Assembly (NCBI GenBank): GCA_036785375.1
Contig: JAWMAR010000081.1
Span: forward strand, 8,184,001 to 8,248,000
Source: Leucoraja ocellata
Lineage: Eukaryota
Direction: 5' to 3'
Length of the DNA: 64,000 bases
Shown here piece after piece: positions 1 through 49,392 of this stretch; positions within the stretch are counted from its first letter, which is position 1; each line of letters opens with the position of its first letter. Under the pieces are notes generated by a model. That model was given only the letters and a program-made list of their open reading frames with translations. It made no database searches and had not been told where the DNA came from. The position numbers and the translations under genes were made by a program.

Positions 1-3000
1 TTATGGATGTGATTTCTCCTGCTGGAGTTTGGGACATTGTCTCTCCTATAGTAATTTCAGAAGCCATCTCTCCAGCACTAGTTTGTGATGTTGTCTCTCC
101 TCCAGTAGAATGGGCCGTGCTCTCTCCTGCATTAATACTGGACGTTGTCTCTCCAGCAGTAGTATGCACTGTAGTCTCTCTTGATGTACTTTGGGACTGA
201 GTCTCCACTGTTGTACTTTGGGAGATCATCTCTACTGCAATAGTTTGGGAGGTGGTCTCACCTATGGCAGTTAGGGACATTGTCTCTCCTGTAGTAGATT
301 CAGATGAGATCTCAGGTGCAGTATTTTGGGATGTGGTCTCTACTGCTGTAGATTGGGACATAGTCTCTCCTGTTGTAGTTTTGAATGTGATCTCTTCAGT
401 TGAAGATTGGAACATGGTCTGTTCTACAGGAGTTTGGGATATTGTCACTACTGAAATAGTTTCAGATGTCAGCTCCTCTGTAGTAGCTTGGGCTGATGTC
501 ACTGGTGCAATTGTTTGGGTCGTGGTCTCTCCTGTGATAGATTGAGACATCATCTCTCCTGTTGTACTCTGGGACATGGTCTCTCCTGCAGTAGTTTGGG
601 ACAATGTCTGTCCTGTTGTAGGTTGAGATGTGGTCTCTCCTTCAGTAGGTATAGATGTGGTTTCTCCTGCAGGAGTTTGGGACATTGTCTCTCTTGTAGT
701 AGTTTTGGATGTCTTGTCACCAGCAGTAGTTTGAGATGTTCTCTCACCTCCAGTTGATTGGACCGTGCTCTCTCCTGCATTTGCTCTGGATGTGGACTCT
801 CCTGTAGTAGATTGAGCCGTTGTCTCTCCTGCTGTTCTCTGGGACATGGTCTCTCCTGCAGTAGTTTGCACTGTAGTCTCTCTTGATGTCTTTTGGGACT
901 GAGTCTCCACTGTTGTACTTTGGGACATCATCTCTACTGCAATAGTTTGAGAGATGGTCACACCTGTGGCAGTTAGGGACATTGTCTCTCCTGTAGTAGA
1001 TTCAGATGTGATCGCAGGTGCAGTATTTTGGGATGTTGTCTCTACTGCTGTAGATTGGGACATGGCCTGTCCTGTTGTAGTTTGGAATGTGGTCTCTTCA
1101 GTAGAAGATTGGAACATGGTCTGTTCTGCACTAGGTTCGGATGTTGTCACTACTGAACTAGTTTGGGACATTGTCTCTGCTGTAGTAATTTCAGATGTCA
1201 GCACTCCTGCAGTAGCTTGGGCCGTAGTCACAGGTGCAATTGTTTGGGTTGTGGTCTCTCCTGTAGTAGATTGAGACATCATCTCCCCTGTTGTAATTAC
1301 GGACATGGTCTCTCCTGTAGTAGTTTGGGACGCGGTCTCTCCTATGGTAGTTTTAGATGTGCTTTCTCCTTCAGTACTTTGCGAAATTATTTTTCCTGTT
1401 GTAGATTGGGACATGGTCTCTACTTCAATAGTTCGTGATGTAGTCACTTCTGCAGTAGTTGGAGACACGATCTCTCCTGTAGTAGTTTTTATCGTTGTCT
1501 CTCCTGCAGAAGTTTGGGCAGTGTTCTCTGCTGCAGTCGTTTCGGCCGTTGTCTCTCCTGCAGTAATTTGGGATATCGTCTGTCCTATTGTAGTTTGAGA
1601 CAAGCTCTCTTCTGTGATAGTTTGGGATGTTGTCGCACCTTCAGAAGTTTGGGATATGATCTCTCCTGCCGTAGTTTGAAACGATATCTGCCGTGTTGTA
1701 CGTTGGGATGTGGTCTCTCCTTCTGTGGTTATGGATGTGATTTCTCCTGCTGGAGTTTGGGACATTGTCTCTCCTATAGTAATTTCAGAAGCCATCTCTC
1801 CAGCACTAGTTTGTGATGTTGTCTCTCCTCCAGTAGAATGGGCCGTGCTCTCTCCTGCATTAATACTGGACGTTGTCTCTCCTGCAGTAGTATGTACTGT
1901 AGTCTCTCTTGATGTACTTTGGGACTGAGTCTCCACTGTTGTACTTTGGGAGATCATCTCTACTGCAATAGTTTGGGAGGTGGTCTCACCTATGGCAGTT
2001 AGGGACATTGTCTCTCCTGTAGTAGATTCAGATGTGATCGCAGGTGCATTATTTTGGGATGTTGTCTCTACTGCTGTAGATTGGGACATAGTCTCTCCTG
2101 TTGTAGTTTTGAATGTGGTCTCTTCAGTTGAAGATTGGAACATGGTCTGTTCTACAGGAGTTTGGGATATTGTCACTACTGAAATAGTTTCAGATGTCAG
2201 CTCCTCTGTAGTAGCTTGGGCTGATGTCACTGGTGCAATTGTTTGGGTCATGGTCTCTCCTGTGATAGATTGAGACATCATCTCTCCTGTTGTACTCTGG
2301 GACATGGTCTCTCCTGCAGTAGTTTGGGACAATGTCTGTCCTGTTGTAGGTTGAGATGTGTTCTCTCCTTCAGTAGGTATAGATGTGGTTTCTCCTGCAG
2401 GAGTTTGGGACATTGTCTCTCTTGTAGTAGTTTTGGATGTCTTGTCACCAGCAGTAGTTTGAGATGTTCTCTCACCTCCAGTTGATTGGACCGTGCTCTC
2501 TCCTGCATTTGCTCTGGATGTGGACTCTCCTGTAGTAGATTGAGCCGTTGTCTCTCCTGCTGTTCTCTGGGACATGGTCTCTCCTGCAGTTGTTTGCACT
2601 GTAGTCTCTCTTGATGTCTTTTGGGACTGAGTCTCCACTGTTGTACTTTGTGACATCATCTCTACTACAATAGTTTGAGAGATGGTCACACCTGTGGCAG
2701 TTAGGGACATTGTCTCTCCTGTAGTAGATTCAGATGTGATCGCAGGTGCAGTATTTTGGGATGTTGTCTCTACTGCTGTAGATTGGGACATAGTCTCTCC
2801 TGTTGTAGTTTTGAATGTGGTCTCTTCAGTAGAAGATTGGAACATGGTCTGTTCTGCACTAGGTTCGGATGTTGTCACTACTGAACTAGTTTGGGACATT
2901 GTCTCTGCTGTAGTAATTTCAGATGTCAGCACTCCTGCAGTAGCTTGGGCCGTAGTCACGGGTGCAATTGTTTGGGTTGTGGTCTCTCCTGTAGTAGATT

Positions 3001-6000
3001 GAGACATCATCTCCCCTGTTGTAATTACGGACATGGTCTCTCCTGTAGTAGTTTGGGACGCGGTCTCTCCTATGGTAATTTTAGATGTGCTTTCTCCTTC
3101 AGTACTTTGCGAAATTATTTTTCCTGTTGTAGATTGGGACATGGTCTCTACTTCAATAGTTCGTGATGTAGTCACTTCTGCAGTAGTTGGAGACACGATC
3201 TCTCCTGTAGTAGTTTTTATCGTTGTCTCTCCTGCAGAAGTTTGGGCAGTGTTCTCTGCTGCAGTCGTTTCGGCCGTTGTCTCTCCTGCAGTAATTTGGG
3301 ATATCGTCTGTCCTATTGTAGTTTGAGACAAGCTCTCTTCTGTGATAGTTTGGGATGTTGTCGCACCTTCAGAAGTTTGGGATATGATCTCTCCTGCCGT
3401 AGTTTGAAACGATATCTGCCGTGTTGTACGTTGGGATGTGGTCTCTCCTTCTGTGGTTATGGATGTGATTTCTCCTGCTGGAGTTTGGGACATTGTCTCT
3501 CCTATAGTAATTTCAGAAGCCATCTCTCCAGCACTAGTTTGTGATGTTGTCTCTCCTCCAGTAGAATGGGCCGTGCTCTCTCCTGCATTAATACTGGACG
3601 TTGTCTCTCCTGCAGTAGTATGTACTGTAGTCTCTCTTGATGTACTTTGGGACTGAGTCTCCACTGTTGTACTTTGGGAGATCATCTCTACTGCAATAGT
3701 TTGGGAGGTGGTCTCACCTATGGCAGTTAGGGACATTGTCTCTCCTGTAGTAGATTCAGATGTGATCGCAGGTGCATTATTTTGGGATGTTGTCTCTACT
3801 GCTGTAGATTGGGACATAGTCTCTCCTGTTGTAGTTTTGAATGTGGTCTCTTCAGTTGAAGATTGGAACATGGTCTGTTCTACAGGAGTTTGGGATATTG
3901 TCACTACTGAAATAGTTTCAGATGTCAGCTCCTCTGTAGTAGCTTGGGCTGATGTCACTGGTGCAATTGTTTGGGTCATGGTCTCTCCTGTGATAGATTG
4001 AGACATCATCTCTCCTGTTGTACTCTGGGACATGGTCTCTCCTGCAGTAGTTTGGGACAATGTCTGTCCTGTTGTAGGTTGAGATGTGTTCTCTCCTTCA
4101 GTAGGTATAGATGTGGTTTCTCCTGCAGGAGTTTGGGACATTGTCTCTCTTGTAGTAGTTTTGGATGTCTTGTCACCAGCAGTAGTTTGAGATGTTCTCT
4201 CACCTCCAGTTGATTGGACCGTGCTCTCTCCTGCATTTGCTCTGGATGTGGACTCTCCTGTAGTAGATTGAGCCGTTGTCTCTCCTGCTGTTCTCTGGGA
4301 CATGGTCTCTCCTGCAGTTGTTTGCACTGTAGTCTCTCTTGATGTCTTTTGGGACTGAGTCTCCACTGTTGTACTTTGTGACATCATCTCTACTACAATA
4401 GTTTGAGAGATGGTCACACCTGTGGCAGTTAGGGACATTGTCTCTCCTGTAGTAGATTCAGATGTGATCGCAGGTGCAGTATTTTGGGATGTTGTCTCTA
4501 CTGCTGTAGATTGGGACATAGTCTCTCCTGTTGTAGTTTTGAATGTGGTCTCTTCAGTAGAAGATTGGAACATGGTCTGTTCTGCACTAGGTTCGGATGT
4601 TGTCACTACTGAACTAGTTTGGGACATTGTCTCTGCTGTAGTAATTTCAGATGTCAGCACTCCTGCAGTAGCTTGGGCCGTAGTCACGGGTGCAATTGTT
4701 TGGGTTGTGGTCTCTCCTGTAGTAGATTGAGACATCATCTCCCCTGTTGTAATTACGGACATGGTCTCTCCTGTAGTAGTTTGGGACGCGGTCTCTCCTA
4801 TGGTAATTTTAGATGTGCTTTCTCCTTCAGTACTTTGCGAAATTATTTTTCCTGTTGTAGATTGGGACATGGTCTCTACTTCAATAGTTCGTGATGTAGT
4901 CACTTCTGCAGTAGTTGGAGACACGATCTCTCCTGTAGTAGTTTTTATCGTTGTCTCTCCTGCAGAAGTTTGGGCAGTGTTCTCTGCTGCAGTCGTTTCG
5001 GCCGTTGTCTCTCCTGCAGTAATTTGGGATATCGTCTGTCCTATTGTAGTTTGAGACAAGCTCTCTTCTGTGATAGTTTGGGATGTTGTCGCACCTTCAG
5101 AAGTTTGGGATATGATCTCTCCTGCCGTAGTTTGAAACGATATCTGCCGTGTTGTACGTTGGGATGTGGTCTCTCCTTCTGTGGTTATGGATGTGATTTC
5201 TCCTGCTGGAGTTTGGGACATTGTCTCTCCTATAGTAATTTCAGAAGCCATCTCTCCAGCACTAGTTTGTGATGTTGTCTCTCCTCCAGTAGAATGGGCC
5301 GTGCTCTCTCCTGCATTAATACTGGACGTTGTCTCTCCAGCAGTAGTATGCACTGTAGTCTCTCTTGATGTACTTTGGGACTGAGTCTCCACTGTTGTAC
5401 TTTGGGAGATCATCTCTACTGCAATAGTTTGGGAGGTGGTCTCACCTATGGCAGTTAGGGACATTGTCTCTCCTGTAGTAGATTCAGATGTGATCGCAGG
5501 TGCATTATTTTGGAATGTTGTCTCTACTGCTGTAGATTGGGACATAGTCTCTCCTGTTGTAGTTTTGAATGTGGTCTCTTCAGTTTGAGATTGGAACATG
5601 GTCTGTTCTACAGGAGTTTGGGATATTGTCACTACTGAAATAGTTTCAGATGTCAGCTCCTCTGTAGTAGCTTGGGCTGATGTCACTGGTGCAATTGTTT
5701 GGGTCATGGTCTCTCCTGTGATAGATTGAGACATCATCTCTCCTGTTGTACTCTGGGACATGGTCTCTCCTGCAGTAGTTTGGGACAATGTCTGTCCTGT
5801 TGTAGGTTGAGATGTGTTCTCTCCTTCAGTAGGTATAGATGTGGTTTCTCCTGCAGGAGTTTGGGACATTGTCTCTCTTGTAGTAGTTTTGGATGTCTTG
5901 TCACCAGCAGTAGTTTGAGATGTTCTCTCACCTCCAGTTGATTGGACCGTGCTCTCTCCTGCATTTGCTCTGGATGTGGACTCTCCTGTAGTAGATTGAG

Positions 6001-9000
6001 CCGTTGTCTCTCCTGCTGTTCTCTGGGACATGGTCTCTCCTGCAGTTGTTTGCACTGTAGTCTCTCTTGATGTCTTTTGGGACTGAGTCTCCACTGTTGT
6101 ACTTTGTGACATCATCTCTACTACAATAGTTTGAGAGATGGTCACACCTGTGGCAGTTAGGGACATTGTCTCTCCTGTAGTAGATTCAGATGTGATCGCA
6201 GGTGCAGTATTTTGGGATGTTGTCTCTACTGCTGTAGATTGGGACATAGTCTCTCCTGTTGTAGTTTTGAATGTGGTCTCTTCAGTAGAAGATTGGAACA
6301 TGGTCTGTTCTGCACTAGGTTCGGATGTTGTCACTACTGAACTAGTTTGGGACATTGTCTCTGCTGTAGTAATTTCAGATGTCAGCACTCCTGCAGTAGC
6401 TTGGGCCGTAGTCACGGGTGCAATTGTTTGGGTTGTGGTCTCTCCTGTAGTAGATTGAGACATCATCTCCCCTGTTGTAATTACGGACATGGTCTCTCCT
6501 GTAGTAGTTTGGGACGCGGTCTCTCCTATGGTAATTTTAGATGTGCTTTCTCCTTCAGTACTTTGCGAAATTATTTTTCCTGTTGTAGATTGGGACATGG
6601 TCTCTACTTCAATAGTTCGTGATGTAGTCACTTCTGCAGTAGTTGGAGACACGATCTCTCCTGTAGTAGTTTTTATCGTTGTCTCTCCTGCAGAAGTTTG
6701 GGCAGTGTTCTCTGCTGCAGTCGTTTCGGCCGTTGTCTCTCCTGCAGTAATTTGGGATATCGTCTGTCCTATTGTAGTTTGAGACAAGCTCTCTTCTGTG
6801 ATAGTTTGGGATGTTGTCGCACCTTCAGAAGTTTGGGATATGATCTCTCCTGCCGTAGTTTGAAACGATATCTGCCGTGTTGTACGTTGGGATGTGGTCT
6901 CTCCTTCTGTGGTTATGGATGTGATTTCTCCTGCTGGAGTTTGGGACATTGTCTCTCCTATAGTAATTTCAGAAGCCATCTCTCCAGCACTAGTTTGTGA
7001 TGTTGTCTCTCCTCCAGTAGAATGGGCCGTGCTCTCTCCTGCATTAATACTGGACGTTGTCTCTCCAGCAGTAGTATGCACTGTAGTCTCTCTTGATGTA
7101 CTTTGGGACTGAGTCTCCACTGTTGTACTTTGGGAGATCATCTCTACTGCAATAGTTTGGGAGGTGGTCTCACCTATGGCAGTTAGGGACATTGTCTCTC
7201 CTGTAGTAGATTCAGATGAGATCTCAGGTGCAGTATTTTGGGATGTGGTCTCTACTGCTGTAGATTGGGACATAGTCTCTCCTGTTGTAGTTTTGAATGT
7301 GATCTCTTCAGTTGAAGATTGGAACATGGTCTGTTCTACAGGAGTTTGGGATATTGTCACTACTGAAATAGTTTCAGATGTCAGCTCCTCTGTAGTAGCT
7401 TGGGCTGATGTCACTGGTGCAATTGTTTGGGTCGTGGTCTCTCCTGTGATAGATTGAGACATCATCTCTCCTGTTGTACTCTGGGACATGGTCTCTCCTG
7501 CAGTAGTTTGGGACAATGTCTGTCCTGTTGTAGGTTGAGATGTGGTCTCTCCTTCAGTAGGTATAGATGTGGTTTCTCCTGCAGGAGTTTGGGACATTGT
7601 CTCTCTTGTAGTAGTTTTGGATGTCTTGTCACCAGCAGTAGTTTGAGATGTTCTCTCACCTCCAGTTGATTGGACCGTGCTCTCTCCTGCATTTGCTCTG
7701 GATGTGGACTCTCCTGTAGTAGATTGAGCCGTTGTCTCTCCTGCTGTTCTCTGGGACATGGTCTCTCCTGCAGTAGTTTGCACTGTAGTCTCTCTTGATG
7801 TCTTTTGGGACTGAGTCTCCACTGTTGTACTTTGGGACATCATCTCTACTGCAATAGTTTGAGAGATGGTCACACCTGTGGCAGTTTGGGACATTGTCTC
7901 TTCTGTAGTAGTTTCAGATGCAATCTCTGGTGCAGTATTTTGGGATGCGGTCTCTACTGCTGTAGATTGCGACATGGCCTTTCCTGTTGTAGTTTGGAAT
8001 GTGGTCTCTTCAGTAGAAGATTGGAACATGGTCTGTTCTGCAGTAGGTTGGGATGTTGTCACTACTGAACTAGTTTGGGACATTGTCTCTGCTGTAGTAA
8101 TTTCAGATGTCAGCACTCCTGCAGTAGCTTGGGCCGTAGTCACGGGTGCAATTGTTTGGGTTGTGGTCTCTCCTGTAGTAGATTGAGACATCATCTCCCC
8201 TGTTGTAATTACGGACATGGTCTCTCCTGTAGTAGTTTGGGACGCGGTCTCTCCTATGGTAGTTTTAGATGTGCTTTCTCCTTCAGTACTTTGCGAAATT
8301 ATTTTTCCTGTTGTAGATTGGGACATGGTCTCTACTTCAATAGTTCGTGATGTAGTCACTTCTGCAGTAGTTGGAGACACGATCTCTCCTGTAGTAGTTT
8401 TTATCGTTGTCTCTCCTGCAGAAGTTTGGGCGGTGTTCTCTGCTGCAGTCGTTTCGGCCGTTGTCTCTCCTGCAGTAATTTGGGATATCGTCTGTCCTAT
8501 TGTAGTTTGAGACAAGCTCTCTTCTGTGATAGTTTGGGATGTTGTCGCACCTTCAGAAGTTTGGGATATGATCTCTCCTGCCGTAGTTTGAAACGATATC
8601 TGCCGTGTTGTACGTTGGGATGTGGTCTCTCCTTCTGTGGTTATGGATGTGATTTCTCCTGCTGGAGTTTGGGACATTGTCTCTCCTATAGTAATTTCAG
8701 AAGCCATCTCTCCAGCACTAGTTTGTGATGTTGTCTCTCCTCCAGTAGAATGGGCCGTGCTCTCTCCTGCATTAATACTGGACGTTGTCTCTCCAGCAGT
8801 AGTATGCACTGGTGCAATTGTTTGGGTCATGGTCTCTCCTGTGATAGATTGAGACATCATCTCTCCTGTTGTACTCTGGGACATGGTCTCTCCTGCAGTA
8901 GTTTGGGACAATGTCTGTCCTGTTGTAGGTTGAGATGTGTTCTCTCCTTCAGTAGGTATAGATGTGGTTTCTCCTGCAGGAGTTTGGGACATTGTCTCTC

Positions 9001-12000
9001 TTGTAGTAGTTTTGGATGTCTTGTCACCAGCAGTAGTTTGAGATGTTCTCTCACCTCCAGTTGATTGGACCGTGCTCTCTCCTGCATTTGCTCTGGACGT
9101 GGACTCTCCTGTAGTAGATTGAGCCGTTGTCTCTCCTGCTGTTCTCTGGGACATGGTCTCTCCTGCAGTTGTTTGCACTGTAGTCTCTCTTGATGTCTTT
9201 TGGGACTGAGTCTCCACTGTTGTACTTTGTGACATCATCTCTACTGCAATAGTTTGGGAGGTGGTCTCACCTGTGGCAGTTAGGGACATTGTCTCTCCTG
9301 TAGTAGATTCAGATGTGATCGCAGGTGCAGTATTTTGGGATGTTGTCTCTACTGCTGTAGATTGGGACACAGTCTCTCCTGTTGTAGTTTTGAATGTGGT
9401 CTCTTCAGTAGAAGATTGGAACATGGTCTGTTCTGCACTAGGTTCGGATGTTGTCACTACTGAACTAGTTTGGGACATTGTCTCTGCTGTAGTAATTTCA
9501 GATGTCAGCACTCCTGCAGTAGCTTGGGCCGTAGTCACAGGTGCAATTGTTTGGGTTGTGGTCTCTCCTGTAGTAGATTGAGACATCATCTCCCCTGTTG
9601 TAATTACGGACATGGTCTCTCCTGTAGTAGTTTGGGACGCGGTCTCTCCTATGGTAATTTTAGATGTGCTTTCTCCTTCAGTACTTTGCGAAATTATTTT
9701 TCCTGTTGTAGATTGGGACATGGTCTCTACTTCAATAGTTCGTGATGTAGTCACTTCTGCAGTAGTTGGAGACACGATCTCTCCTGTAGTAGTTTTTATC
9801 GTTGTCTCTCCTGCAGAAGTTTGGGCAGTGTTCTCTGCTGCAGTCGTTTCGGCCGTTGTCTCTCCTGCAGTAATTTGGGATATCGTCTGTCCTATTGTAG
9901 TTTGAGACAAGCTCTCTTCTGTGATAGTTTGGGATGTTGTCGCACCTTCAGAAGTTTGGGATATGATCTCTCCTGCCGTAGTTTGAAACGATATCTGCCG
10001 TGTTGTACGTTGGGATGTGGTCTCTCCTTCTGTGGTTATGGATGTGATTTCTCCTGCTGGAGTTTGGGACATTGTCTCTCCTATAGTAATTTCAGAAGCC
10101 ATCTCTCCAGCACTAGTTTGTGATGTTGTCTCTCCTCCAGTAGAATGGGCCGTGCTCTCTCCTGCATTAATACTGGACGTTGTCTCTCCAGCAGTAGTAT
10201 GCACTGTAGTCTCTCTTGATGTACTTTGGGACTGAGTCTCCACTGTTGTACTTTGGGAGATCATCTCTACTGCAATAGTTTGGGAGGTGGTCTCACCTAT
10301 GGCAGTTAGGGACATTGTCTCTCCTGTAGTAGATTCAGATGAGATCTCAGGTGCAGTATTTTGGGATGTGGTCTCTACTGCTGTAGATTGGGACATAGTC
10401 TCTCCTGTTGTAGTTTTGAATGTGATCTCTTCAGTTGAAGATTGGAACATGGTCTGTTCTACAGGAGTTTGGGATATTGTCACTACTGAAATAGTTTCAG
10501 ATGTCAGCTCCTCTGTAGTAGCTTGGGCTGATGTCACTGGTGCAATTGTTTGGGTCGTGGTCTCTCCTGTGATAGATTGAGACATCATCTCTCCTGTTGT
10601 ACTCTGGGACATGGTCTCTCCTGCAGTAGTTTGGGACAATGTCTGTCCTGTTGTAGGTTGAGATGTGGTCTCTCCTTCAGTAGGTATAGATGTGGTTTCT
10701 CCTGCAGGAGTTTGGGACATTGTCTCTCTTGTAGTAGTTTTGGATGTCTTGTCACCAGCAGTAGTTTGAGATGTTCTCTCACCTCCAGTTGATTGGACCG
10801 TGCTCTCTCCTGCATTTGCTCTGGATGTGGACTCTCCTGTAGTAGATTGAGCCGTTGTCTCTCCTGCTGTTCTCTGGGACATGGTCTCTCCTGCAGTAGT
10901 TTGCACTGTAGTCTCTCTTGATGTCTTTTGGGACTGAGTCTCCACTGTTGTACTTTGGGACATCATCTCTACTGCAATAGTTTGAGAGATGGTCACACCT
11001 GTGGCAGTTTGGGACATTGTCTCTTCTGTAGTAGTTTCAGATGCAATCTCTGGTGCAGTATTTTGGGATGTGGTCTCTACTGCTGTAGATTGCGACATGG
11101 CCTTTCCTGTTGTAGTTTGGAATGTGGTCTCTTCAGTAGAAGATTGGAACATGGTCTGTTCTGCAGTAGGTTGGGATGTTGTCACTACTGAACTAGTTTG
11201 GGACATTGTCTCTGCTGTAGTAATTTCAGATGTCAGCACTCCTGCAGTAGCTTGGGCCGTAGTCACGGGTGCAATTGTTTGGGTTGTGGTCTCTCCTGTA
11301 GTAGATTGAGACATCATCTCCCCTGTTGTAATTACGGACATGTTCTCTCCTGTAGTAGTTTGGGACGCGGTCTCTCCTATGGTAGTTTTAGATGTGCTTT
11401 CTCCTTCAGTACTTTGCGAAATTATTTTTCCTGTTGTAGATTGGGACATGGTCTCTACTTCAATAGTTCGTGATGTAGTCACTTCTGCAGTAGTTGGAGA
11501 CACGATCTCTCCTGTAGTAGTTTTTATCGTTGTCTCTCCTGCAGAAGTTTGGGCGGTGTTCTCTGCTGCAGTCGTTTCGGCCGTTGTCTCTCCTGCAGTA
11601 ATTTGGGATATCGTCTGTCCTATTGTAGTTTGAGACAAGCTCTCTTCTGTGATAGTTTGGGATGTTGTCGCACCTTCAGAAGTTTGGGATATGATCTCTC
11701 CTGCCGTAGTTTGAAACGATATCTGCCGTGTTGTACGTTGGGATGTGGTCTCTCCTTCTGTGGTTATGGATGTGATTTCTCCTGCTGGAGTTTGGGACAT
11801 TGTCTCTCCTATAGTAATTTCAGAAGCCATCTCTCCAGCACTAGTTTGTGATGTTGTCTCTCCTCCAGTAGAATGGGCCGTGCTCTCTCCTGCATTAATA
11901 CTGGACGTTGTCTCTCCAGCAGTAGTATGCACTGTGGTCTCTCTAGATGTACTTTGGGACTGAGTCTCCACTGTTGTACTTTGGGAGATCATCTCTACTG

Positions 12001-35800: not shown

Positions 35801-38800
35801 AGTAGATTGGAATGCAGTCCCTCTTGTGGTAGATTGGGACATTGTTTCTCCTGTTGTAATTTGGGACATGATCTCACCTGTTGTAGTTTGGGAAATGGTC
35901 ACTTCGGCAGAAGTTTCAGATGTGGTTTCCTCTGCAATAGTTTGGGCCGTGGACTCTCCTGTTGTACTTTGGGACGTTGTCTCTCCTTCAGTAGTTTGGG
36001 CCTTGAACTCTCTTACAGTAGTTTGGGACATGATCTCTCCTGTAGTAATTTGGGACAATGTCTGTCCTATTGGAGTTTTGGATGTAGTCTCTCTGGCAGG
36101 AGAATGGGACATGGTCTCTCCTGTAGTAGTTTGTGTCATGATCTCTCCTGTGGGAGGTTTTGATGTTGCCTTGTTTGTTGTAGTTTCGGACATGATCTCT
36201 CCTTTGGTAGTTTGGGCCGTGGTGTCACCTGCAGTGGATTTGGACATGAGCTCTGCTGCAGTAGTTTTGGATATGGTCCTTCCTGTGATAGTCTCAGTTT
36301 CAGACATGATCACTCCTGTGGTAATTTGCGATGTTGTCTGTTCTATTGTACTTTGGGGTCTGGTCTCTCTTGCAGTAGTTAGGGAAGTGGTCTCATCTGT
36401 TCTAGTTTGGGACGTGATCTCTTCAGCAGTATTTTGGGCGATGATCTCTTCTATGGTAGTTTGGAACGATGTCTGTCCTGTTGTACGTTGGGGCCTGGTC
36501 TCTCCTGCAGTCGTTTGGGAAGTGGTCTCCTCTGTTGTAGTTTGGGACGTAATCTTCCCTGTGGTAGTTTGGGACATTAATACCCCGTCAGTACTTTGGG
36601 ATATAATCTTTCCAGTTATAGATTGGGATATGGTCTCTCCTTCAATAGTTTGGGTCATGCCTTCTTCTGTAGTAGTTTGTGACCTGATCTTTCCTATAGT
36701 AGATTGAAGCATCATCTCTCCAGCAATAGTTTGGGATGTGGTTTCTTCTGTTGCAGTTTGGGACATGACTTCATCTGTGGTAGATTGGGATGTTGTCTCT
36801 CCTTCAGTTGCGTGGGTGATGGCCTCTCCTGCAGTAGATTGGGACGTAGTTTCACCTTCACTAGTTAGAGACATGACTTGTCCTGTTGTAGATTGGGACA
36901 TGATCTCTCCTTCAGTAGTTAGGGATATGGTTTCTCCTGAAGTAGTTTGGGATGTTGTCTCTCCTGCCCTAACTTGGGATATAGTCTCTCCCACAGTTGA
37001 TTGGGACATGTCTTGTTCTGCAGTAGTTTGGGATGTGATCACTCCTGCATTTGTTTGGGCTGTGGTCTCACCTGTTGTACTTTGGAATATCGTCTCTCCT
37101 GTTGTAGTTTGGGACATGGTATCTCCTGTGGTAGTTTTGAACGTGAAATCTCCTTGAGTACTTAAGGATATAATTTTTCGAGTTGTAGGTTGGGATATAT
37201 ATTGGGACATCGCCTCTCCTGCAGTAGTTTGAGATGTTGTCTCTACTGCAGTAGCTTGGGCCGTAGTCTCTCCTGCAATAGTTTGAGACATGGTTTCTAT
37301 TGTAGTAGATTGAGACATTGTATCTCCAGTTGTACTCTGGGACATCATCTCTCCTGCAGTTGTTTGGGCTGTAGTCTCTCCTGTTGTAGTTTGGGATGTG
37401 GTCCCTCCTGTAATAGTTTGAGACATGGTCTCTCCTGCTGTAGTTTGGAACATCTGTCTTGTTGTACTTTGGGATGTGGTCTCTCCTGCAATAATTTGGG
37501 ATATGGTTTGTTCGTATGCAGTTTGGGACATGATCTCTCCTGTGGTAGTTTTGAACTTTGTCTCTCCTGCAGTAGTCTGGGCTATTGTCTCTCCTGCTGT
37601 AGTTTCATACATGGACTCTCCTGCAGCAGTTTGGGACGTGGTTTCACCTTCAATAGTTTGAGACATGATTTTTCCTGTTGTAGATTGAGACATTGTCACT
37701 CCTCTAGTATTTTCGGATGTGGTCTCTCCTGCAGTACTTTGGGCTGTGGTCTCCCCTGCAATAGTTTGGGATATACTCTCTCCTACTGTCGTTTGAGACT
37801 TCATCTCCCCTGCAGTAAACTGGGTCGTTGTCTCTCCTGTTGTAGTCGGAGACACAATCGTTCCTGCAGACGTTTGGGCCATTGTCTCTCCTGCAGTAGC
37901 TTGGGATGTGTTCCCTCCTGTTGTAGACTGGGATATCATCTCTCCTTTTGTAGTTTGGGATGTATTCCCTCTGGTTGTAGTTTGCAACATGGTCTCTCCT
38001 GCAGAAGTTTCAAATGTGGTCGCTTCTTCAATAGTTTGGGACATAGTCTCTCCTGAAGCAGTTTGGGCCATGTTTTGTCCTGCAGTAGATTGTGATATGG
38101 TGTCTCCTGTTGTAATTTCAGACATGATCTCTCCAACGATAGCTTGGACCGTAGTCTCTCCTGCTGTGGATTGGGACATGAACGATCCTTCAGTAGTTAG
38201 GGATATGGTCTCTCCTGCAGTAGTTTTTGCCTTGGTTTCTACAGTAGATTCGGACATCGTCTGCCCTGTTGCAGTTTGGGACATGATCTCTTCTGTGGTA
38301 GGTTGTATTGTTGTCTCTCCTATTCTACTTTGGGACAGAGTCTCTCCTGCAGTAGTTTGAGTTGTGGATTCTCCGTCAGTACTTTGAGATTTGATTTTTC
38401 CTGTTGTTGATTGAGACATAGTCTCTCCTTCAATATTTAAGGATGTAGTCTCCCCCACAGTAGATGGGAAATTGATCTCTCCTATGGTAGTTTTTGATGT
38501 TATCTCTTCTGCAGTAGTTTGGGCCATGGTCTCTCCTGTTGTACTTTGGGACATACTCTCTCCTGTTGTCATTCGGGACATTATCTCCCCTGCAGTAGAC
38601 AGGGACATCTTCTCTCCCATTGTAATTGGGGACATGATCTTTCTTGTAGTTGTTTGGGCCGTGGTATCTCCTGCAGTAGTTTGGGACGTGATCTCTCCTG
38701 TAGTAGATTGGGACAATCTCTCTCCTGTTGTAGTTTGGGACATTGTCTCTTCTGCAGCAGTTTTGGGAATGGTCTTTCCTGAAGTAGTTTGTGTTGTGGT

Positions 38801-41800
38801 CTCTCCTGCAGTAGTTTGTGCCATGGTCTCTCCTCCAGTAGATGGGGACATGATCTCTCCTGCAGTAATTTGGGAAGATGTCTGTCCTGTTGTACTTTGG
38901 GCTGTTATCCCTGTGGGTGTGTTTGTTGTAGTTGTCTCAGCTGCCTTGGTTGTTGAACTCTCAGATAATGTCATTGTCGAGGTGGTCTCAGTTTGTGGCA
39001 CTCTTGAGCTGGTCCCACTTGGTGTAGCTTTTGGGTTGGTCTCACCTGAAGTAGTTGTTGGGGTGGTTTCTGCTGGTGTAACTCTTGAAGCAGTCTCTGC
39101 TGGTATCTCCATTGGGGTGGTTTCAGCTACTGTCATTGATGTGGTGGTCGCACTTGGTGTAGATGTTGAGGTTGTTGATAAGGTGCTCTCAGCTGCTGTC
39201 GCTGTTGACCTGGTCTCACCTGATGCACTTGTTGAAGTGGTCTCACCTGGTGTAACTGTTGAGAAAGTATTTGTTGCTGTTGAGGTGATCTCCGCTGGTA
39301 TCGATGTTGAGCTGGTCTTAACTGGTAGAGTTGTGTAGGTGGTGTCTGTGAGAGTGGTTGTTGAAGTGATCTCAGCTGGTGGTTCTGTTGAGCTTGTCTC
39401 AGTTGGTGCTGCTGTTGGAGTGGTCTCAACTAGTATAGTTGTGGAGATGGTCTTTGCCAATGTAGTTGTTGAAGTGGCCTGTGCTGGTGTTGCTTCTGAG
39501 GTAGTGTCAGATGATGTCAGTGTAGGAGTGGTCACTGCTGGTGCAGTTGTTGTTCTGGTCTCAGCTAGTTTTGGGATGGTCTCTGCTAGTTTTGGGATGG
39601 TCTCTGCTGGTGCAGCAATTGAGATGGTCTCAACTGGTGTTGCTGCTGAGGTAGTCTCAGCAGGTGTGGTGGCCTCAGCTGATGTGACTGTCTCTGCTGG
39701 TATTGCTGTTGGGGTGGTCTCAGCTACTGTCATTGAGATGGTCAAACTCGGTGTAGTTATTCGACTCTTCCCACCAGGTATGGATGTTGCATTTGTCTCA
39801 CCTGGGATAATTGATGAAGTGGTCTCAGATGATTTAGCTGTTGTGAATACCTCAACTGCTGTCGTTGTTGACCTGCTCTCACCTGGTGTACTTGTTGAAG
39901 TGGTCTTACCTGGTGTAACTGTTGAGGTGGTCTCAGCTTCTGTCATTGTTGAGGTAGTCTCAACTCGTGTTACTGAAGAGGTGGTCTCTTCTGAGGTCAT
40001 TGTTATGGTGGTCTCAGCTGGTGTAATTGTTGATGTAGTCTCAGCTGATGTCGCTGTTGAACCGCTCTCAGCTGGAATCGTTCTTGAGCTGGTCTCATCT
40101 GGTGCTGCTGTTGGATTGGTCTCAACGTGTGTAGCTGTGGAAGTTGTCTCTGTGCGTGTAGTTGATGAAGTGGTCACAGATGTTGTGGCTGTAGGAGTGG
40201 TCACAGCTGGTGTAGTCGTGCTAGTCTTGAGCAGTGTCACTGTTGGGATGAGTGCATCTGGTGTTGTTGTTGAGATGGTCTCAGATGGTCTCACTGTTGA
40301 TGTAGTCTCACTTGTTCTCTCTCTTGAGTTGGTCTCACCTGGTGTTATGGATGAAGATGCCTCAACTGGTGCGGCTATAGGAGTGGTCTCAGCCGGTGAA
40401 GTTGTTGAATTGACTTTTGTCAGTGACGTTTTTGAGGTGATCTCAGATGGCTTCACTGTAAGAGTGGTCACAGCTGGTGTAGTTTCATTGGTCTCATCTT
40501 GTATCGCTGTTAAGAAGGGTTTCGCTGTTAAGTTGGTCTGATCTGGCTTAGGTGTTGAGGTGGCCTCAGCTAATGTAATTATTGAGGTGGTCTCACCTTG
40601 TGTAATTCTTGAGGTTGTCTCTGCAGTTGTTGACGTGGTCTCAACTGGTGTAGTGCTTGAGCTGGTCTCAGTTGGTGTTGGTGACCTGCTGTCAAATGGA
40701 GTTGCTGTTGAGATAGTCTTAGCTGGTGACATTGTTGAAGTTGTCTCAGCTGCTATAACGTTGAAGGTGGTCTCATCTGGTGTCACTATTGAGATGGTCT
40801 CAGCTGCCGATGCTATTAAGGTGGTCTCAGCTTGTGTCACTGTTGCAATGGTTTCAGCTGCTGAAGCTGTTGTTATGGAGTCAGCTGGTGTAATAATTGA
40901 GCTGGTCTCAGCTGGTGTTGCTGTTGATCTGGTCCCTCTTGGTGTAGTTGTTGGGTTCATGCCATCTGGAGTAGTTGTTGGGATGGTCTCAGCTGATATC
41001 GCTGCTGAGGTGGTCTCAGCAGGTGTCACTGGTGAGGTGGCCTCAGCCGGACTCACAGTTGAAGCTGTCTCTGCTGTTATCTCTCTTGGGGTGGTTACAG
41101 GTGGAGTCATTGTGGAGATGGTCACACTTGGGGTAGTTGTTGAGCTCGTCCCACCGGGTGTAGATATTGAGGTTCCCTCGCCTGGAGAAATTGATGAGGT
41201 GATCTCAGCTGACATAGATGCTGAGAATACCTTAGCCACTGTCGCTGTTGACCTGGTCTCACCTGCTGTACTTGTTGAAGTGGACTCACCTGGTGTAACT
41301 GTTGAGGTCTTCTCAGCCTCTGTCGTTGTCGCGGTGATCTGCGCTGGTCTCTCTATTGAGGTGGTCTTGACTGGTGTTGTGGGTGTAGATGCCTCAGCTG
41401 GTGTTGCTGTTGGATTGGTTTCAACTGGTGTAGTTGTGGAGGTAGTCTCTGGGGGCCTGGTTGTCACAGTGGTCTCAGCTGGTGCCGCTGTTGGAGTGGT
41501 CTCAACTATAGATGTGAAGATGGTCTTTGCCGAAGTAGTTATTGAAGGGGCCTGTGTTGGTGTTGCTTTTGAGATGGTCTCAGATCGTGTCACTGTAGGA
41601 GTGGTCACAGCCGGCATTGCTGTTGTGCTGGACTCCACTTGCGATGCTCTTGTGGTGGTTTCAGCTGGTGCATTTGCTGAGGAGGCCTCAGCTGATGATA
41701 CTATTGAAGTGGTCTCAGCTGATGTTACTGTTGAGGTGATCTCATCTGGTGTTACTTTTGAGATAGTCTCTGTTAGTGTAGTAGTTGAGGTAGTCTCAGC

Positions 41801-44800
41801 TGGTGTTACTTTTGAGATGGTCTCAGTTTGTGCAGCTGTTGTAATAGTTTCACCTAGTGTAGCTGTTGAGGTGGTTTCAGCTGGTGTTTTTGTCGATGTG
41901 TCTTGGGATACTTTTGAGGTTCTCTCAGCTGGTGTCAGCATTGAGGTGGTCTCAAATGATGTTGCTGTTGAGATAGTCTCTGCAGATGCGGTTGTTGAGG
42001 TGGCCTCAACTAGCATTGTTGTTGTCCTGCTGTTAAATGGAGTAGTTGTTGAGATGGTCTTAGCTGGTGTCATTGTTGAGCTAGTCTCTGCTGGTGTCAC
42101 TGTAGATGTGGTCTCAGCTGGGATCACTCTTGAGAAGGTCTCATCTGTTGAGGTGGTCGCAGCCTGTATTGCTGCTGAGGTGGTCTCAGCTGTTGTTACT
42201 GCTGAAGTAGCCTCAGCTAGTACAGCTGTTAAAGTGGTCTCTACTGGTGTTGCTGTTGAGGTGATATCAACTGGCGTATTTGCAGAGGAGGTCACACCAG
42301 GCATAGTTGTTGAGATGGTCTCAGCTTGTGTAGTCGTTAAGGTGCTCTCAGCTGGTGTTACTGTCGATGTTATGTCTTGGGTTACTGTTGAGGCTATCTC
42401 AGATAGTGTCATTGATGTGGTCTCAAATGATGTTGCTGTTGAGATAGTCTCTGCAGGTGCATTTGTTGAAGTGGTCTCTGATAGTGTCACTGTTGAGGTG
42501 ATGTCTGCTTGGGTTAGGGTTGAGCTGGTCTCAGCTGGTGTTGCTTTTAAGGTGGTCAGATCTGGATTAGATGAGGTGGCCTCAGCTAGTGCGATTGATG
42601 AGGTGGTCTCACCTGGTGTAGTTCTTGAAGTAGACTCAGCTTGTGTGGTTGTTGATGTGGTCTCAACTGGTGTAGTAGCTGAGCTGGTCTCAACTAGCGT
42701 CGTTGACCTGCTGTTAAATGTAGTTGCTGTTGAGATAGTCTTAGCTGGTGTCATTGTTGATGTGGTCTCAGCTGTTGTAGGGTTGATGGTGGTCTCATCT
42801 GATGTCACTGTTGAGATGGTCTCATCTGGTGATGCTATTAAGGTGGTCTCAACTGGTGCAGCAGTTGTAGTGGTCTCAGCAGCTGCTGCTGTTGAGGTAG
42901 TCAATGTTGCAATGGTTTCAGCTGGTAAAGCTGTTGATGTGGAGTCAGCCGATGTAATAGTTGAGATGGGCTCAGCTCGTTTAGCTGCTGAGCTGGTCTC
43001 AGCTGGTGTTGCCGTTACGGTGGTCTCAGTTTGTGTTGCTGCTGAGGTGGTCACAGCTAGTGTCACTGTTGGAGTGATCTTATCAGTTGTAGCTGTTGGG
43101 ATGGTCTCACTTGGTGTAGGTGTTGAGGTGGCCTCAACAGATATCACTGTTGAGGTGGTCTCAGCAGGTGTAGATGCAGAGGTGGACTCTGTTGGCGTTA
43201 CTGTTGTGTCGGTCACATCTGGTAACACTGTTGATGAGGCTGTAGTTGTTTCAGCTTGTGTTGTTGTTGATTTGGTCTCAACTGGTGTAGTATTTTGGGT
43301 TACTGTTGAGCTTCTCTCAGATGGTGTCAGCATTGATGTGGTCTCAAATGATGTTGCTGTTGAGATAGTCTCTGCAGGTGCATTTGTTGAAGTGGTCTCT
43401 GATAATGTCGCTGTGGAGGTGATGTCTGCTTGGGTTAGGGTTGAGCTAGTCTCAGCTGGTGTTGCTTCTAAGGTGGTCAGATCTGGATTAGTTGAGGTGG
43501 CCTCAGCTAGTGTGATAGATGAGATGGTCTCACCTGGTGTAGTTCTTGAAGTAGTCTCAGCTTGTGTGGTTGTTGATGTGGTCCCAACTGGTGTAGTAGC
43601 TGAGCTGGCCTCAACTAGCATTGTTGTTGACCAGCTGTTAAATGGAGTTGCTGTTGAGATGGTCTTAGTTGGTGCCATTGTTGATGTGGTCTCAGCTGCT
43701 ATAGTGTTGAAGGTGGTCTCATCTGGTGTGACTGTTGAGATGATCTTAACTGGTAATGCCATTAAGGTGGTCTCAGCAGGTGCAACAGTTGTAGTGGTCT
43801 CAGTAAGTGTTACTGTTGCAATGGTTTCAGATGGTAAAGCTGTTGATGTGGAAGTGGTGTCAACAAATGTCATTGTTGTGTTGGTCTCAGCAGGTGTGGA
43901 TGCTGAGGTGAGCTCTATTGGTGTTGAGTCGGTCGCATTTGGTAACACTGTTGAGGTGGTCTTACCAGCTGTAGTTCTTGAAATTTTCTCAGGTCGTGTA
44001 TTTGTTGATGTGGTCTCCAATGGTGTGTTGTCTGAGCTGGCCTCAACTAGCGTTGATGTTGGCCTGCTGTTAAATGGAGTTTCTGTTGAGATGGTGTCAG
44101 CTGATGCAGCAGTTACAGTGGTCTCATCTGGTGTCGCTCTTGAGGTTGTCTCAGCTGGTGTTGCTGTTGTGATGTTCTCAGCTGGCGATGCTATTAAGGT
44201 GGTCTCAGCTGATGCAGCAGTTGTGGTGGTCTCAGTGGCTGCTGCTGTTGAGGTAGTCTCATCCAGTGTCACTGTTGCAATGGTTTTAACTGATGAAGCT
44301 GTGGATGTGTAGTCCACTGATGTAATAGCTGAGATGGGCTCAGCTCGTTTTGCTGCTGAGCTGGTATCAGCTGGTTTTGCCGTTACAGTGGTCTCTGCTT
44401 GTGTTGCTGCTGAGGTGGTCACAGCTGGTGTCGCAGTTGGAGTGATCTTATCAGATGTAGCTGTTGGGGTGGTCTCACTTGGTGTAGTTGTTGAGATAGT
44501 CTCGCCTTGAGTCACTGTTGGGTTGGTCTCATCAGATGTCGCAGTTGAGCTGGTCCCAGTGGGTGTTATTGTTAAATTGGTTTCATCTGGTGTTGCTATT
44601 GGGGTGCTGTCAACTAGTGCCTCTATTGAAGTGGTCTCAGCAAGTGTTACTGTTGCAATGGTTTCAGATGGTAAAGCTGTCACTGTTGAGGTCGTTTCAA
44701 CTGGTGTTGCTGTTGAGATGTTCTCGGCTGGTGTTTCCATTGAGCTGGTCTCAGCTGATATTAATGTTGAGGTGGTATCAGCTGTTGATGTGGTCTCAGC

Positions 44801-47800
44801 TTGTGTAGTGTTGGATTTGGTATCATCTTGTATTGCTGTTGAATTGGACTCAGCTGGTGTAGTTGTTGAGATTGTCTCTGGTGTCACGATTGAGCTGATC
44901 TCTGCTTGTGCTGCTGTTGTGGTGGATTCTGTTAATGCTGCTGTCGATGTGGTCTCCGCAGGCATCACTGCTGAAGTGGTCTGATCTGGTGTAGTTGTTG
45001 TGATGATCTCCCCTGGTGCCACTGTTGAGGAGGACTCAAGTGATGTTACTGTTTTGATGGTCTCAGCAGATATCAATGTAGATGTTGTCTCAGCTGGTGT
45101 AGCCTTAGATGTGGTCTCACCTGGTGTTGCTTTGGAAGTGATCTCAGCTGATATCGCTGTTTGGGCTGTCTCAGCTCGTGTTACAGTTGAGAAGGTCTCA
45201 GCTGGTGTTATTGTATTTGAGGTGGTTTCCATTGGTGTCGTTGCTAGGTTGGTCTCAGCTGGTGTCGTTATTGAGGTGGCAACGGCTAGCATTGCTGTTG
45301 GGGTGGTCTCATGTGGTGTAATTGTTGAGGTGGTCTGTGCTGGTGTTACTGTAGGAGTTGTCTTAGCTGGTATTGTTGTTGGGGTTGTCTCAGCGACTGT
45401 TGTTTTTGAGCTGGTCTCACCTGCTGCCATTGTTAATGTGGTCAGAGCTGGTGTTACTATTGAGACTGTCACACCTGGTGTAATTGTTAACATGGTCTTA
45501 GCTGGTATAGATGTTGACGTGGTCTCAGCCAGCAAAAACAGTGAGGTGGTCTCAGCTGCTGTCTCTGTTGAGGCTGTCACGTCTAGTATAGTTGTTGCAG
45601 TGGTCTCAACTGTTGTAGTGGTTAATGTGTTCTCAGATGCCAATATTGCAGAGGTGGTCTCAGCGGTTGTTGTTGTTGATGATGTGCCAGCGGTTGTCGT
45701 TGAGGTGGCCTCACTAGTTGTTGCTGCTGTTGAGGTGCTCTTAACTGGTACAGCTGTTGAGGCCGTCTGAACTCGTGTAACTGTGATCTCAGTTATTGGA
45801 GTTGCAGGGGTTGTCACAACTGGTGAAGAAGTAGTGGTACTTTTAGTAGAGGTTCCTGTTGGTATGGTCTCAGCTAGCATAGTTGTTGTCATCTCAGCTT
45901 GTGTAGTTGATGAAGTGGTCTCAGCTGGTTTGGTTGTTGTAGTGGGCCTACCTAATGTCACTGGTGAGGTCGTCTCAGCAGAATTTCCTGCTGAGCTGGT
46001 CTCAGTCTGTGTCCCTATTGAAGTGATCTCGCCTTCTTTAGCAGTTGAGGTGGACATAGGTACTAGAGGTGACATGATGGTTGAGGTGGTCTCAGCGGCT
46101 GTTATTTTCGTGCTGGTCTCGCTTGTTGTAGTTGTTGATGTTATCTCAACTGATGTACCTGCCAAATTTGTCTTACCTGTTGTTAAAGTTGGCATGGTCT
46201 TTGCTGGTGTAGTTATTGCTATTGTCTGATTTGGTGTAGTTACTGAGGTGACCTCTGCTGGTTTATGCATTGTAGTGGGCACAGCCAGTGTAGTTATTGA
46301 GGAGGATTCAAATGGTGTAGTTGTCGATGTAGTCTCACCTGCTGGAGGAATTGAGGTGGTCTCACCTGGTGCAGATGTTACGAATGTTGAGATCATCTCA
46401 ATTGGTGTCGGCGTTGATGTGGTCTCAAGAGGTGTACCTGCTGAGGTGGTCTCAGCTGGTGTAAACGTTGAGGAGGCCACAGCCATTGTCACTGTTGAGA
46501 TGGTCACAGCTGGTTTAGACATTGAGGTGTGCTCTGCTGGTGTAGTTGCTTTTGTGGTCTCAGAGGATGTTGTTGCGAAGATGGTTTCAGCTGGTGTCAT
46601 TGTTGTGGTGGTCTCACTTGGTGTGGTTGTTGATCTTCTCACACCTGGTGTAATAGTTGAGCTGGTCTCTTTTTGTGTAATGGTTGAGGTAGTCTCAGCT
46701 TCTGTTGTCAAGGTGGTCTCAGCTGATGTCACTGTTGATGTTGTCTCAGCTCCTCTCACTGTTGCAGTGGTTTCATTTTGTAAAGTTATTGAGATGGTCT
46801 CAGCTGGTACAGCCCTTGTGATGGTCTCTGCTTGTGAAGCTGGTGAGATGGTCTCTGATGGCAATTTTGCTGAGATGGTCTCAGCTGACGTAGCTATTGA
46901 GGTGGTCTCAGCTTGTGCTGTTGTTGAGGTGGTCTGAGCTGGTGTAGTTGTCAGGATGGTCACAGCTGATGTACCTGTCAGGGTAGTCTCAGCTGGTATA
47001 CCTGTTGAGGTGGTGACATGTGGTTCATTTATTGATGTGGTCTCAGCGATTGCTAAGGTTATCTGATCTTGCGTATTTGTTGCGCTGGTCCTCCCTGGAG
47101 TAGATAAGGTTTCAGGTGCTGTAGGCGTTGAGGTTGTTTCATCTGGTATAGGTATTGATATAGTCGAACTTGGTGTAATTGTTGATATGGCCGGAAGTAG
47201 TGAGGTTCCTGAGGTGTTCACAGCTGATGTAATTGTTGAGGTTATCTCAATATGTGTATGTGTTGAGATTGTCTCAGCTGGTGTAGTGATGGTTGTTTCA
47301 GATGATGTAGTTGGTGACATTCTCTCAATTGGTCTCATTGTTGAGTTGGTCTCAACTGGTATCGGGGTTGTGGTTATAACCTGTGTACCTGTTAAGGTAG
47401 TGTCAGGTTTTGTGGTGCGGATCATCTTAGCCGATGTACTTGTTAATGCGGTTTCAGATGGCGTAGTTGCTGAGGTTGTCTCTGCCAATGTATCTGTTAA
47501 CCTTCTCCCAGTTGGCGTAGTTATTGTGTTATCTAGTATTGTTGTCTTTGTGGTCTCATTTGGTGTAGTCATCTCTGCTGGAGTAACTTTTGAGGCGGTC
47601 ACAGGCTGTGTATCTGTCTTAACTGGTTTTGTTGTTGTGCTGGACTCACCTGGTATAGCCTTTGAGGTTGTCTCAGCTAGTGTTGTTGATGACAAGATCT
47701 CAGACGATGCATTTGGCGAGGTGTTCTCCGCCGGTCTAGCTGTTGAATTTCTAGCTGTAGTTTTTATTTGTGATGTGTTTTCTGCAGTGATCGTTTGTTT

Positions 47801-47901
47801 TTTCATATGTGTGGTTACGTTTTCGGTTGTTGCTTGACTGTCTGTGCTGGAAAAACCCGCCGTGACATAAGTTGACGTATAATTTGCTCTTGTGTCTGCA
47901 T
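1..47901 (-). CDS. Giant mucin-like Thr/Ser-rich (PTS-type) coding exon, 3'-partial, >=15,966 codons
   Basis: The minus frame (codon first base at positions =1 mod 3) reads (x)ADTRANYTSTYVTAGFSSTDSQATTENVTTHMKKQ... at 47,899 and ...EITIGETMSQTPAGEITSI at the left edge. Every Val-rich plus-strand shadow ORF from 3 to 47,187 starts at 0 mod 3, so the frame is kept throughout. The ORF track reports no stop-terminated ORF in this frame. In-frame stops lie just upstream (TGA 47,926, TAA 47,932), with the acceptor TTTCTTCTTGCAATTTAG| at 47,903-47,902. The specific mucin gene cannot be identified without the C-terminal domains. Confidence 0.92.
23800..38905 (-). repeat. Degenerate 27-bp coding minisatellite, consensus SQTTAGET(T/M), with irregular older block repeats
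   Basis: The plus-strand motif gtggtctctcctgcagtagtttggga(c/t) recurs throughout. The landmark 'gacaag(c/t)tctcttc' recurs at irregular ~0.8-1.7 kb spacing (about 23730, 24873, 25869, 26760, 27597, 29268). Confidence 0.93.
38906..47600 (-). repeat. Second degenerate 27-bp coding repeat family, consensus STTTPAETT
   Basis: The plus-strand motif gtggtctcagctggtgt(a/t)gttgttga gives TCA ACA ACT ACA CCA GCT GAG ACC AC on the minus strand. Internal block duplications are present (e.g. ~42.4 kb and ~43.3 kb). Confidence 0.9.
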
Positions 47902-47920
47902 CTAAATTGCAAGAAGAAAT
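47902..47920 (-). other. 3' splice acceptor (polypyrimidine tract + AG) of the giant exon, phase 1
   Basis: Minus strand ATTTCTTCTTGCAATTTAG|AT GCA GAC. It coincides with the switch from AT-rich non-coding sequence to the open Thr/Ser-rich frame. Confidence 0.8.
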
Positions 47921-48885: not shown

Positions 48886-49392
48886 ATTAGAACAGCACAA
48901 CACAGGAACAAACACTTTGACCCACAGTATCTGTACCAAACTAATTATTTCAACCTGCACATTGTCCACGTCACTCTATCCCTGCATACCCATGTGTCTA
49001 TCTAAAAGGCACTTAAATGCCACTATCGTATCTGCTTCCACACACCAACCTAGCAGCACATTCTAGGCACTAACCATCTCAGTGTAAAAACATTTGCACC
49101 ATTCATCGCCTTTAAATTATCCCTCTCTCATTTTAAAGCTATGCCCCCTAGTATTGGACATTGTCACTCTGGGAAAAAACATACAGATGTTTTATTCCGT
49201 CTATGCCTTTTATAATTTTATAAACTTCTATCAGGTCTCTCCCTAGCCTCCGGCGCACCAAAGAAAATAATCCAATTTTGCCCGACCTTATAGTAAATAC
49301 CTTCTAATCCATGCAACATGCTGGTAAAGCTTCACTGCACCCACTACAAAGCTTGCACCTACTTCCACTAATGGGGAGGCCAGAACTGCAAA
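48886..49392 (-). mobile_element. Degraded CR1-clade LINE 3' fragment
   Basis: Similar by eye to the better-preserved CR1 3' ends at 49,945 and 51,523. Ends at ccagaactgca, the reverse complement of the CVQFW-coding segment. Confidence 0.7.

Follow-up and report, generated by a model that had tools for sequence, protein, structure and literature searches.

The window, by which we mean the whole 64-kb stretch of skate (Leucoraja ocellata) DNA that was analysed (C81:8184001-8248000, forward strand, where C81 is contig JAWMAR010000081.1 of a 3.44-Gb assembly), is dominated by one minus-strand reading frame. A six-frame stop count found this frame free of stops from window position 47,923 to the window edge, a run of 15,974 codons; across the window, the number of stops in each of the other five frames is 470-1,934. 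The frame is preceded by a splice acceptor with its AG at 47,903-47,902, which puts the first base of the exon at 47,901, with phase 1. Leftward, the open frame ends at C81:8,178,143, 5.8 kb outside the window, and the exon is closed by a GT donor directly after C81:8,178,166, 5,835 nt left of the window. The whole giant exon is thus 53,736 nt or 17,912 codons long, with phase 1 at both ends, and its product is 1.85 MDa, of which the in-window portion alone contributes 1.64 MDa. The original prediction had been a stop-free coding exon of at least 47.9 kb with an acceptor at 47,902, encoding an apoprotein segment of roughly 1.6 MDa; translation of the reverse complement, with 0 stops in frame up to the window edge, agrees with each of these statements, and the extension to the donor enlarges the exon to its full size. 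A Val-rich open frame of 1,256 codons on the plus strand (window 40542-44309) is a shadow of the Thr-rich codons and was not counted as a gene. The features of the locus are the following.

C81:8262860-8306358, same strand as the mucin: UMODL1-like gene (EGF, FN3, SEA, EGF, ZP, anchor), ending ~16 kb upstream of mucin exon 1
Window 62409..62420, minus strand: TATA-like element ~70 nt 5' of the ATG, common to both paralogues by alignment, function inferred
Window 62297..62345, minus strand: exon 1, 49 nt, from ATG to the phase-1 donor GTAAGT, putative signal-peptide exon, by match to paralogue first exons
Window 47902..62296, minus strand: intron 1, 14.4 kb, with dispersed repeats and stops in all frames
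Window 47902..47920, minus strand: giant-exon splice acceptor, identical in sequence on contig C116
Window 1..47901, minus strand: in-window portion of the giant Thr/Ser-rich exon, by frame, acceptor, composition and 30-mer analysis
Window 47015..47901, minus strand: exon head, non-repetitive and Thr-rich, with zero shared 30-mers
Window 47644..47652, minus strand: perfect (9/9) internal donor-like site, phase 1, 252 nt into the exon, kept on C116
Window 39000..47014, minus strand: Array A, a degenerate 27-bp (9-codon) repeat of Ala-Glu-Thr-Thr-Ser type with ~6-8% Pro, by repeat analysis
Window 41284..41292, minus strand: second perfect internal donor-like site, phase 1, kept on C116
Window 23500..38900, minus strand: old part of Array B, a degenerate 27-bp repeat of Gly-Glu-Thr-Met-Ser-Gln-Thr-Thr type with 1-2% Pro, by repeat analysis
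Window 1..23500, minus strand: young part of Array B, a 1,728-bp (64 x 27) higher-order repeat, by 14 anchors
C81:8163858-8163614, minus strand: terminal membrane-anchor and tail exon, 53% identical to the anchor and tail of a homologue
C81:8115200-8126650 and 8088969-8101652: paralogous large Thr/Ser exons with ~2-kb repeats and open frames

When the 49-nt first exons of the two downstream paralogues were aligned locally to 31 kb of sequence, exon 1 scored highest with each (82 and 70.5, against 53.5 and 52.5 for the next-best sites). Its region is ~100% identical on C116, which carries a second copy of the locus. It encodes a modestly hydrophobic stretch, on the strength of which we assign it a putative signal peptide. 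Seven alternative start-exon candidates were without a match to the paralogue first exons, and a tblastn search with a shark signal peptide returned nothing useful. Within intron 1, window 51523-55306 holds a ~1.3-kb dispersed repeat with 91-96% identical copies on many contigs, a 250-bp piece of which is inverted at 55,053-55,306.

On the other side of the giant exon, an EGF exon 7.3 kb beyond its donor pointed to shark and ray SEA-EGF proteins. Mapping these proteins back onto the locus yielded, in order, an FN3 exon, two exons for a first SEA domain, two EGF exons, one Cys-rich exon, two exons for a second SEA domain and an anchor exon that contains the stop. SEA/EGF/TM is one of the domain sets that had been guessed for the C-terminus. 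Spliced without the second EGF exon, which is broken, the model has ten exons totalling 55,146 nt; it encodes 18,381 aa, and its sole stop is at the end. All of its junctions are canonical, one intron being of the GC-AG kind; a GC donor lies at the end of the second SEA exon (C81:8164955). Both SEA domains of the model hold a Gly-Ser-Val motif. Pfam matches of the gene's own single SEA and FN3 exons stay under the curated cut-offs (SEA E 0.009, 0.0017); SEA matches exceed the cut-off in the homologues P0009 and P0004. EGF and FN3 matches were also obtained. A predicted structure of homologue P0004 (mean pLDDT 68, 10 sequences) matches FN3 structures; a single-sequence fold was unusable at pLDDT 34. 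Over its C-terminal 454 aa the model is 59.6% identical to P0009 of Hemitrygon, the best of 19 proteins compared, which by itself points to a ray as the probable source; a Corvus protein reaches 37% over 244 columns.

A simple motif scan found no VWD domain, and no CUB domain was found after the Cys at the exon end. In place of the VWD, CysD and cystine-knot domains of a gel-forming mucin, the giant exon has one Cys and the model ends in SEA and anchor exons. The giant Ser/Thr exon, the SEA domains with Gly-Ser-Val and the anchor with its short tail give this gene the sequence features of a SEA-type transmembrane mucin. Judged from the sequence, the stretch is probably exon 2 of a type I mucin of this class, encoded by a complete gene.

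The in-window translation consists of 30% Thr, 14% Ser, 11% Glu, 8% Ala, 7% Gln, 6% Gly and 3% Pro. Over the whole exon, built on a 27-bp repeat unit, there are 7,786 Ser and Thr residues (43.5%), 1,998 Asp and Glu against 626 Lys and Arg, three Trp, and the single Cys at the extreme end. Glu is high and Pro is low (2.8%), the latter below what a textbook PTS domain would have and so a point against the mucin reading; such a chain would be unusually acidic even before glycan addition. In the young part of Array B, 12 of the 13 intervals between the 14 anchors measure 1,728 bp and one measures 3,123 bp; the 12 full copies differ pairwise by 5-46 bases, without an identical pair. Sharing of 30-mers per kb falls to at most 19% above window position 24,000 and to less than 4% above 28,000. 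The degenerate 24-kb section is therefore really non-redundant, and it is stop-free, the latter as had been proposed.

In the exon, 5,383 of 17,911 codons (30%) lie one substitution from a stop; an abundance of such codons had been noted in the original prediction for the degenerate repeat. An open frame of this length goes far beyond what chance would give. Variants in the CAA column of the degenerate 27-bp repeat number 44 for AAA and 34 for GAA, and none is TAA; the GAG column has 22 AAG and 40 CAG, with no TAG. More generally, single-base variants of CAA, GAG, GGA and TCA are frequent in the old arrays save for those that make stops, and the TCC codon has 34 TTC variants and no TGC. A column-wise null predicts 14.8 and 13.9 stops for the two arrays, where 0 are observed; the units share ancestry, so that these counts are not independent. 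A cruder codon-position null over 7,966 codons, in which shared ancestry likewise overstates independence, predicts 38 Cys and 17 Trp, and 0 and 2 are seen. A test on variants of the higher-order repeat was weak, with 0 real stops among 84 distinct variants against 3.2 expected; the sole variant scored as a stop is a codon with two changes. As a local control for decay, a decayed Thr/Ser exon of the neighbouring paralogue survives as pieces of at most 167 codons, which illustrates the fate of such an exon without selection. Codon content accounts for any shortage of poly(A) signals or donors along the giant exon (AATAAA occurs twice, against 2.8-3.5 in the nulls).

The second copy of the locus allows a more direct comparison. 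On C116 the exon is 53,307 nt long with its frame open; the stop-to-stop runs are 17,927 codons (C81) and 17,798 codons (C116), and both exon lengths are multiples of three. The two copies diverge by 1.4%. Over the 8 kb of intron 1 that was compared they are 98% identical with one ~220-bp indel, and because many other genes are also doubled in the assembly, C116 is most likely the other haplotype, although it may be a recent duplication. Across the 8.4 kb of the 53.7-kb exon (16%) compared between them, 112 substitutions include 0 nonsense changes against ~4.0 expected (crude P 0.017). All four exon indels are triplet (18, 882, 9 and 3), as had been claimed for indels in this frame, whereas seven of ten intron indels are non-triplet. 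The head keeps 97% amino-acid identity across 300 residues, with 70 missense and 22 synonymous differences; the resulting pN/pS of 1.30 speaks for no amino-acid-level constraint there. Between C81 8231899-8276160 and C116 1986799-2040593, the copies differ by ~9.5 kb between the EGF exon of the UMODL1-like gene and the giant exon.

Contigs assembled from sequencing runs bear on the same question. Those from four runs, out of 24 listed, fill all 30 bins into which window 28,200-48,150 was divided; one of the four runs bears the label of the same organism, the other three those of different ones. Among the 32 contig pieces listed (of 1,174), eight are gapped, and seven of these have triplet gap totals; the eighth belongs to a cross-species contig with a gap total of 31 that reaches into the intron, its extra base unplaced. 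The 12 indels listed (of 55) divide into six triplet indels and six that form compensating +1/-1 pairs within six bases, and the 40 substitutions listed (of 1,473) include 0 nonsense changes. None of the contigs listed bridges the whole of the stretch with which they were compared.

Taken from these patterns, selection preserves the frame, the composition and the absence of Cys, and leaves the exact sequence free. The idea of a single mucin-type coding exon kept in frame by selection is hence upheld; purifying selection, which had been proposed without distinction, is seen for frame, stops and Cys and does not extend to the amino-acid sequence, as the head shows.

A gene that is active may still rarely use its giant exon in full. 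We found 33 internal sites that match the donor consensus at 8-9 of 9 positions, compared with only 6 of 9 for the true terminal donor, and all 33 are in phase 1, that is, in phase with the FN3 exon. If these sites dominated, the product would mostly be a much shorter mucin, and use of all 53.7 kb of the exon would represent a single step on a ladder of in-frame ectodomain lengths. The two perfect sites, both kept on C116, fit this proposal as well. However, the sites stem from Gly-Glu codon pairs and are not enriched, the first 24 kb holding 32 of them where a synonymous null gives 27.4 +/- 4.7, and no strong internal acceptor was found within the giant exon. Moreover, beyond the last of these sites the frame remains open, and the Cys at the end of the exon, which precedes FN3 in the homologues, is supplied by the terminal donor alone; for these two reasons the full exon appears to be used at least sometimes. 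We regard dominance of the internal donors as unlikely, and it would limit the abundance of the full form while leaving its existence intact.

A second alternative arises from the broken second EGF exon, and it is quite unlikely in our view. In both copies this exon retains its acceptor along with five Cys, lacks the last Cys (retained in 10 of 10 homologues) and the donor, and reads into a stop 12 codons past the break, for which no common repeat at the break point offers an explanation. The product could then be a secreted mucin ending just past the break, or the gene could have been crippled recently, its open frame reflecting past selection. The anchored model does require skipping of the second EGF exon. 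Yet this exon is phase 1-1, such that skipping preserves the frame, and the Cys-rich, SEA and anchor exons downstream of the lesion are intact. Homologues differ in the number of such EGF exons, and a truncated EGF exon sits at the same place in both paralogues. Two copies 1.4% apart also show no nonsense or frameshift difference.

That the stretch is a non-coding satellite, stop-free by chance, or an assembly expansion is highly improbable: a young repeat of a kind prone to assembly error makes up about half of the exon, and no read spanning it was seen among the contigs listed, but its 12 full copies are all different, which argues against simple assembly expansion, the separately assembled C116 copy has near-equal length and an open frame, 24 kb of non-redundant sequence is stop-free against clear expectation, and the exon boundaries fit a complete gene.

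The neighbourhood of the transmembrane mucin gene offers a clue to its origin. The exons read in the UMODL1-like gene upstream, which encode EGF, FN3, SEA, ZP and anchor, correspond to the domains of UMODL1 (PMC8874799). Its intron positions and phases in FN3, the two SEA exons and EGF are equal to those in the mucin. On C81, ZP matches occur solely at 8,269,409 and 8,267,873, both upstream and followed by that gene's own anchor exon and stop, in a genome search whose counts are lower bounds. We considered the upstream FN3-SEA-EGF exons as part of the mucin gene and dropped the idea, for ZP, anchor and stop exons intervene. Because of the shared intron positions and phases, we favour an origin of the mucin stalk by partial tandem duplication of the UMODL1-like FN3-SEA-EGF module. 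The search returned no ABC2-membrane match on C81, again as a lower bound, and ABCG1 synteny is unsupported.

Downstream lie two paralogous Thr/Ser exons, each followed by the same module; their open frames run to 3,817 and 4,228 codons in the C81 copy, and in the C116 copy, where both are open as well, to 1,966 and 4,868. The middle paralogue has FN3, SEA and EGF exons (C81:8107741-8105649) and no second SEA or anchor before the first exon of the next gene. It may be either truncated or spliced in frame into the large exon of the third gene, and some two-module shark models suggest the latter. Between its first exon and its intact large exon, a Thr/Ser pseudo-exon lies at C81:8132190-8135900, decayed through insertions, frameshifts and stop codons.

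With regard to size, it had been claimed that the largest human coding exons (MUC16 ~21 kb, TTN ~17 kb) are under half as long. These figures come from an hg19-era count, which puts the MUC16 exon over 21 kb (PMC3467050), and they are outdated. Later long-read work gives 39,267 bp for human MUC3B exon 2 (PMC9578598), and a 2026 preprint reports human MUC12 alleles that reach 23,080 aa and span a size range of 55,233 bp, and calls the MUC12 exon the largest human coding exon (PMC13345508). At 53,736 nt the skate exon therefore falls within the human range and sets no size record; it is among the largest coding exons reported, and the longest human MUC12 alleles appear larger. Outside vertebrates, the spider aggregate spidroin AgSp1 has 42,270 bp of repetitive coding sequence (PMC6553539). 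Unlike the skate exon, it is split into two similar-sized exons and encodes a secreted silk glue with unrelated domains.

In its layout the skate gene resembles human MUC3A, MUC3B, MUC12 and MUC17: exon 1 is short, exon 2 is a single giant Ser/Thr exon, SEA, EGF-like and anchor regions follow, the genes form a tandem cluster and alleles vary in length. It differs in its FN3-SEA-EGF-Cys-SEA stalk with FN3 and two SEA domains, where the MUC3 cluster has a single SEA, in a Glu/Gln/Gly-rich, Pro-poor repeat, and in having a UMODL1-like neighbour rather than ACHE, TRIM56 or SERPINE1, the upstream neighbour being the one identified. MUC16 carries a long run of SEA domains, and it shares with the skate gene a very large degenerate Thr/Ser exon and more than one SEA domain. 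In contrast to MUC16, whose length is near-fixed in humans (PMC13345508), the skate gene has two SEA domains and a variable length. The FN3-SEA-EGF module is shared with UMODL1 (olfactorin; PMC8874799), but the skate mucin is without ZP exons, has its own first exon and stop, and places a giant Thr/Ser exon before FN3.

The homologues include shark, ray and bird FN3-SEA-EGF-SEA-anchor proteins (P0009, P0004, P0006, P0011-P0015) with the same stalk. Unlike the skate gene product, their database models run to 500-1,200 aa, in a search that returned proteins of at most 2,000 aa. Their names are mismatched: 'uromodulin-like 1 partial', 'mucin-5AC-like', 'DAN4-like', 'jagged-2-like' or uncharacterized. 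Avian FN3-SEA relatives are mostly labelled 'UROL1 partial', there being 171 matches, of which the 120 listed are avian or unnamed. A zebrafish lateral-line mucin is a CysD protein and unrelated (PMC11765562). A term search of a chicken mucin inventory gave no 'fibronectin', 'FN3' or 'uromodulin' (PMC1552070), and we found no description of an FN3-SEA-EGF-SEA mucin family in a literature search outside which most subscription journals lay.

If the gene works as its structure suggests, the full giant exon would be transcribed and translated and the chain would enter the secretory path, where the Gly-Ser-Val sites of the SEA domains would be cleaved and many of the Ser and Thr residues O-glycosylated. 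The outcome would be an acidic bottle-brush on an epithelial surface, of up to ~4.5 micrometres at 0.25 nm per residue, which could keep microbes and particles off the membrane and be shed. The tissue might, at a guess, be gut or skin epithelium. The apical barrier and decoy role, the SEA cleavage and the shedding are proposed by analogy with MUC17 and its relatives (PMC13643018, PMC9578598). Historically, the stalk would have been born by tandem partial duplication of the UMODL1-like module minus its ZP domain, and the exon would have grown by in-frame unequal exchange, first of the 27-bp unit and later of the 1,728-bp block. We raise, with considerable doubt, the broader proposal that jawed vertebrates hold a second giant membrane-mucin family, derived from UMODL1 minus ZP and independently MUC12-sized; in the skate, the choice among the in-frame donors laddered along the 53.7-kb exon would by itself set the height of the glycocalyx, anywhere between tens of nanometres and micrometres.

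The locus provides a test case for exon definition, as the spliceosome must bypass 33 better-looking donors to reach the true one 53.7 kb away. It also gives the mis-named proteins of sharks, rays and birds a defined gene structure, adjacent to a UMODL1-like gene. Coding exons of more than 50 kb occur beyond a single primate gene: this cartilaginous fish has one of comparable size, with a different stalk and probably of a different origin. On present sequence evidence, this is a previously unnamed kind of membrane mucin gene, whose product would work like the known membrane mucins.
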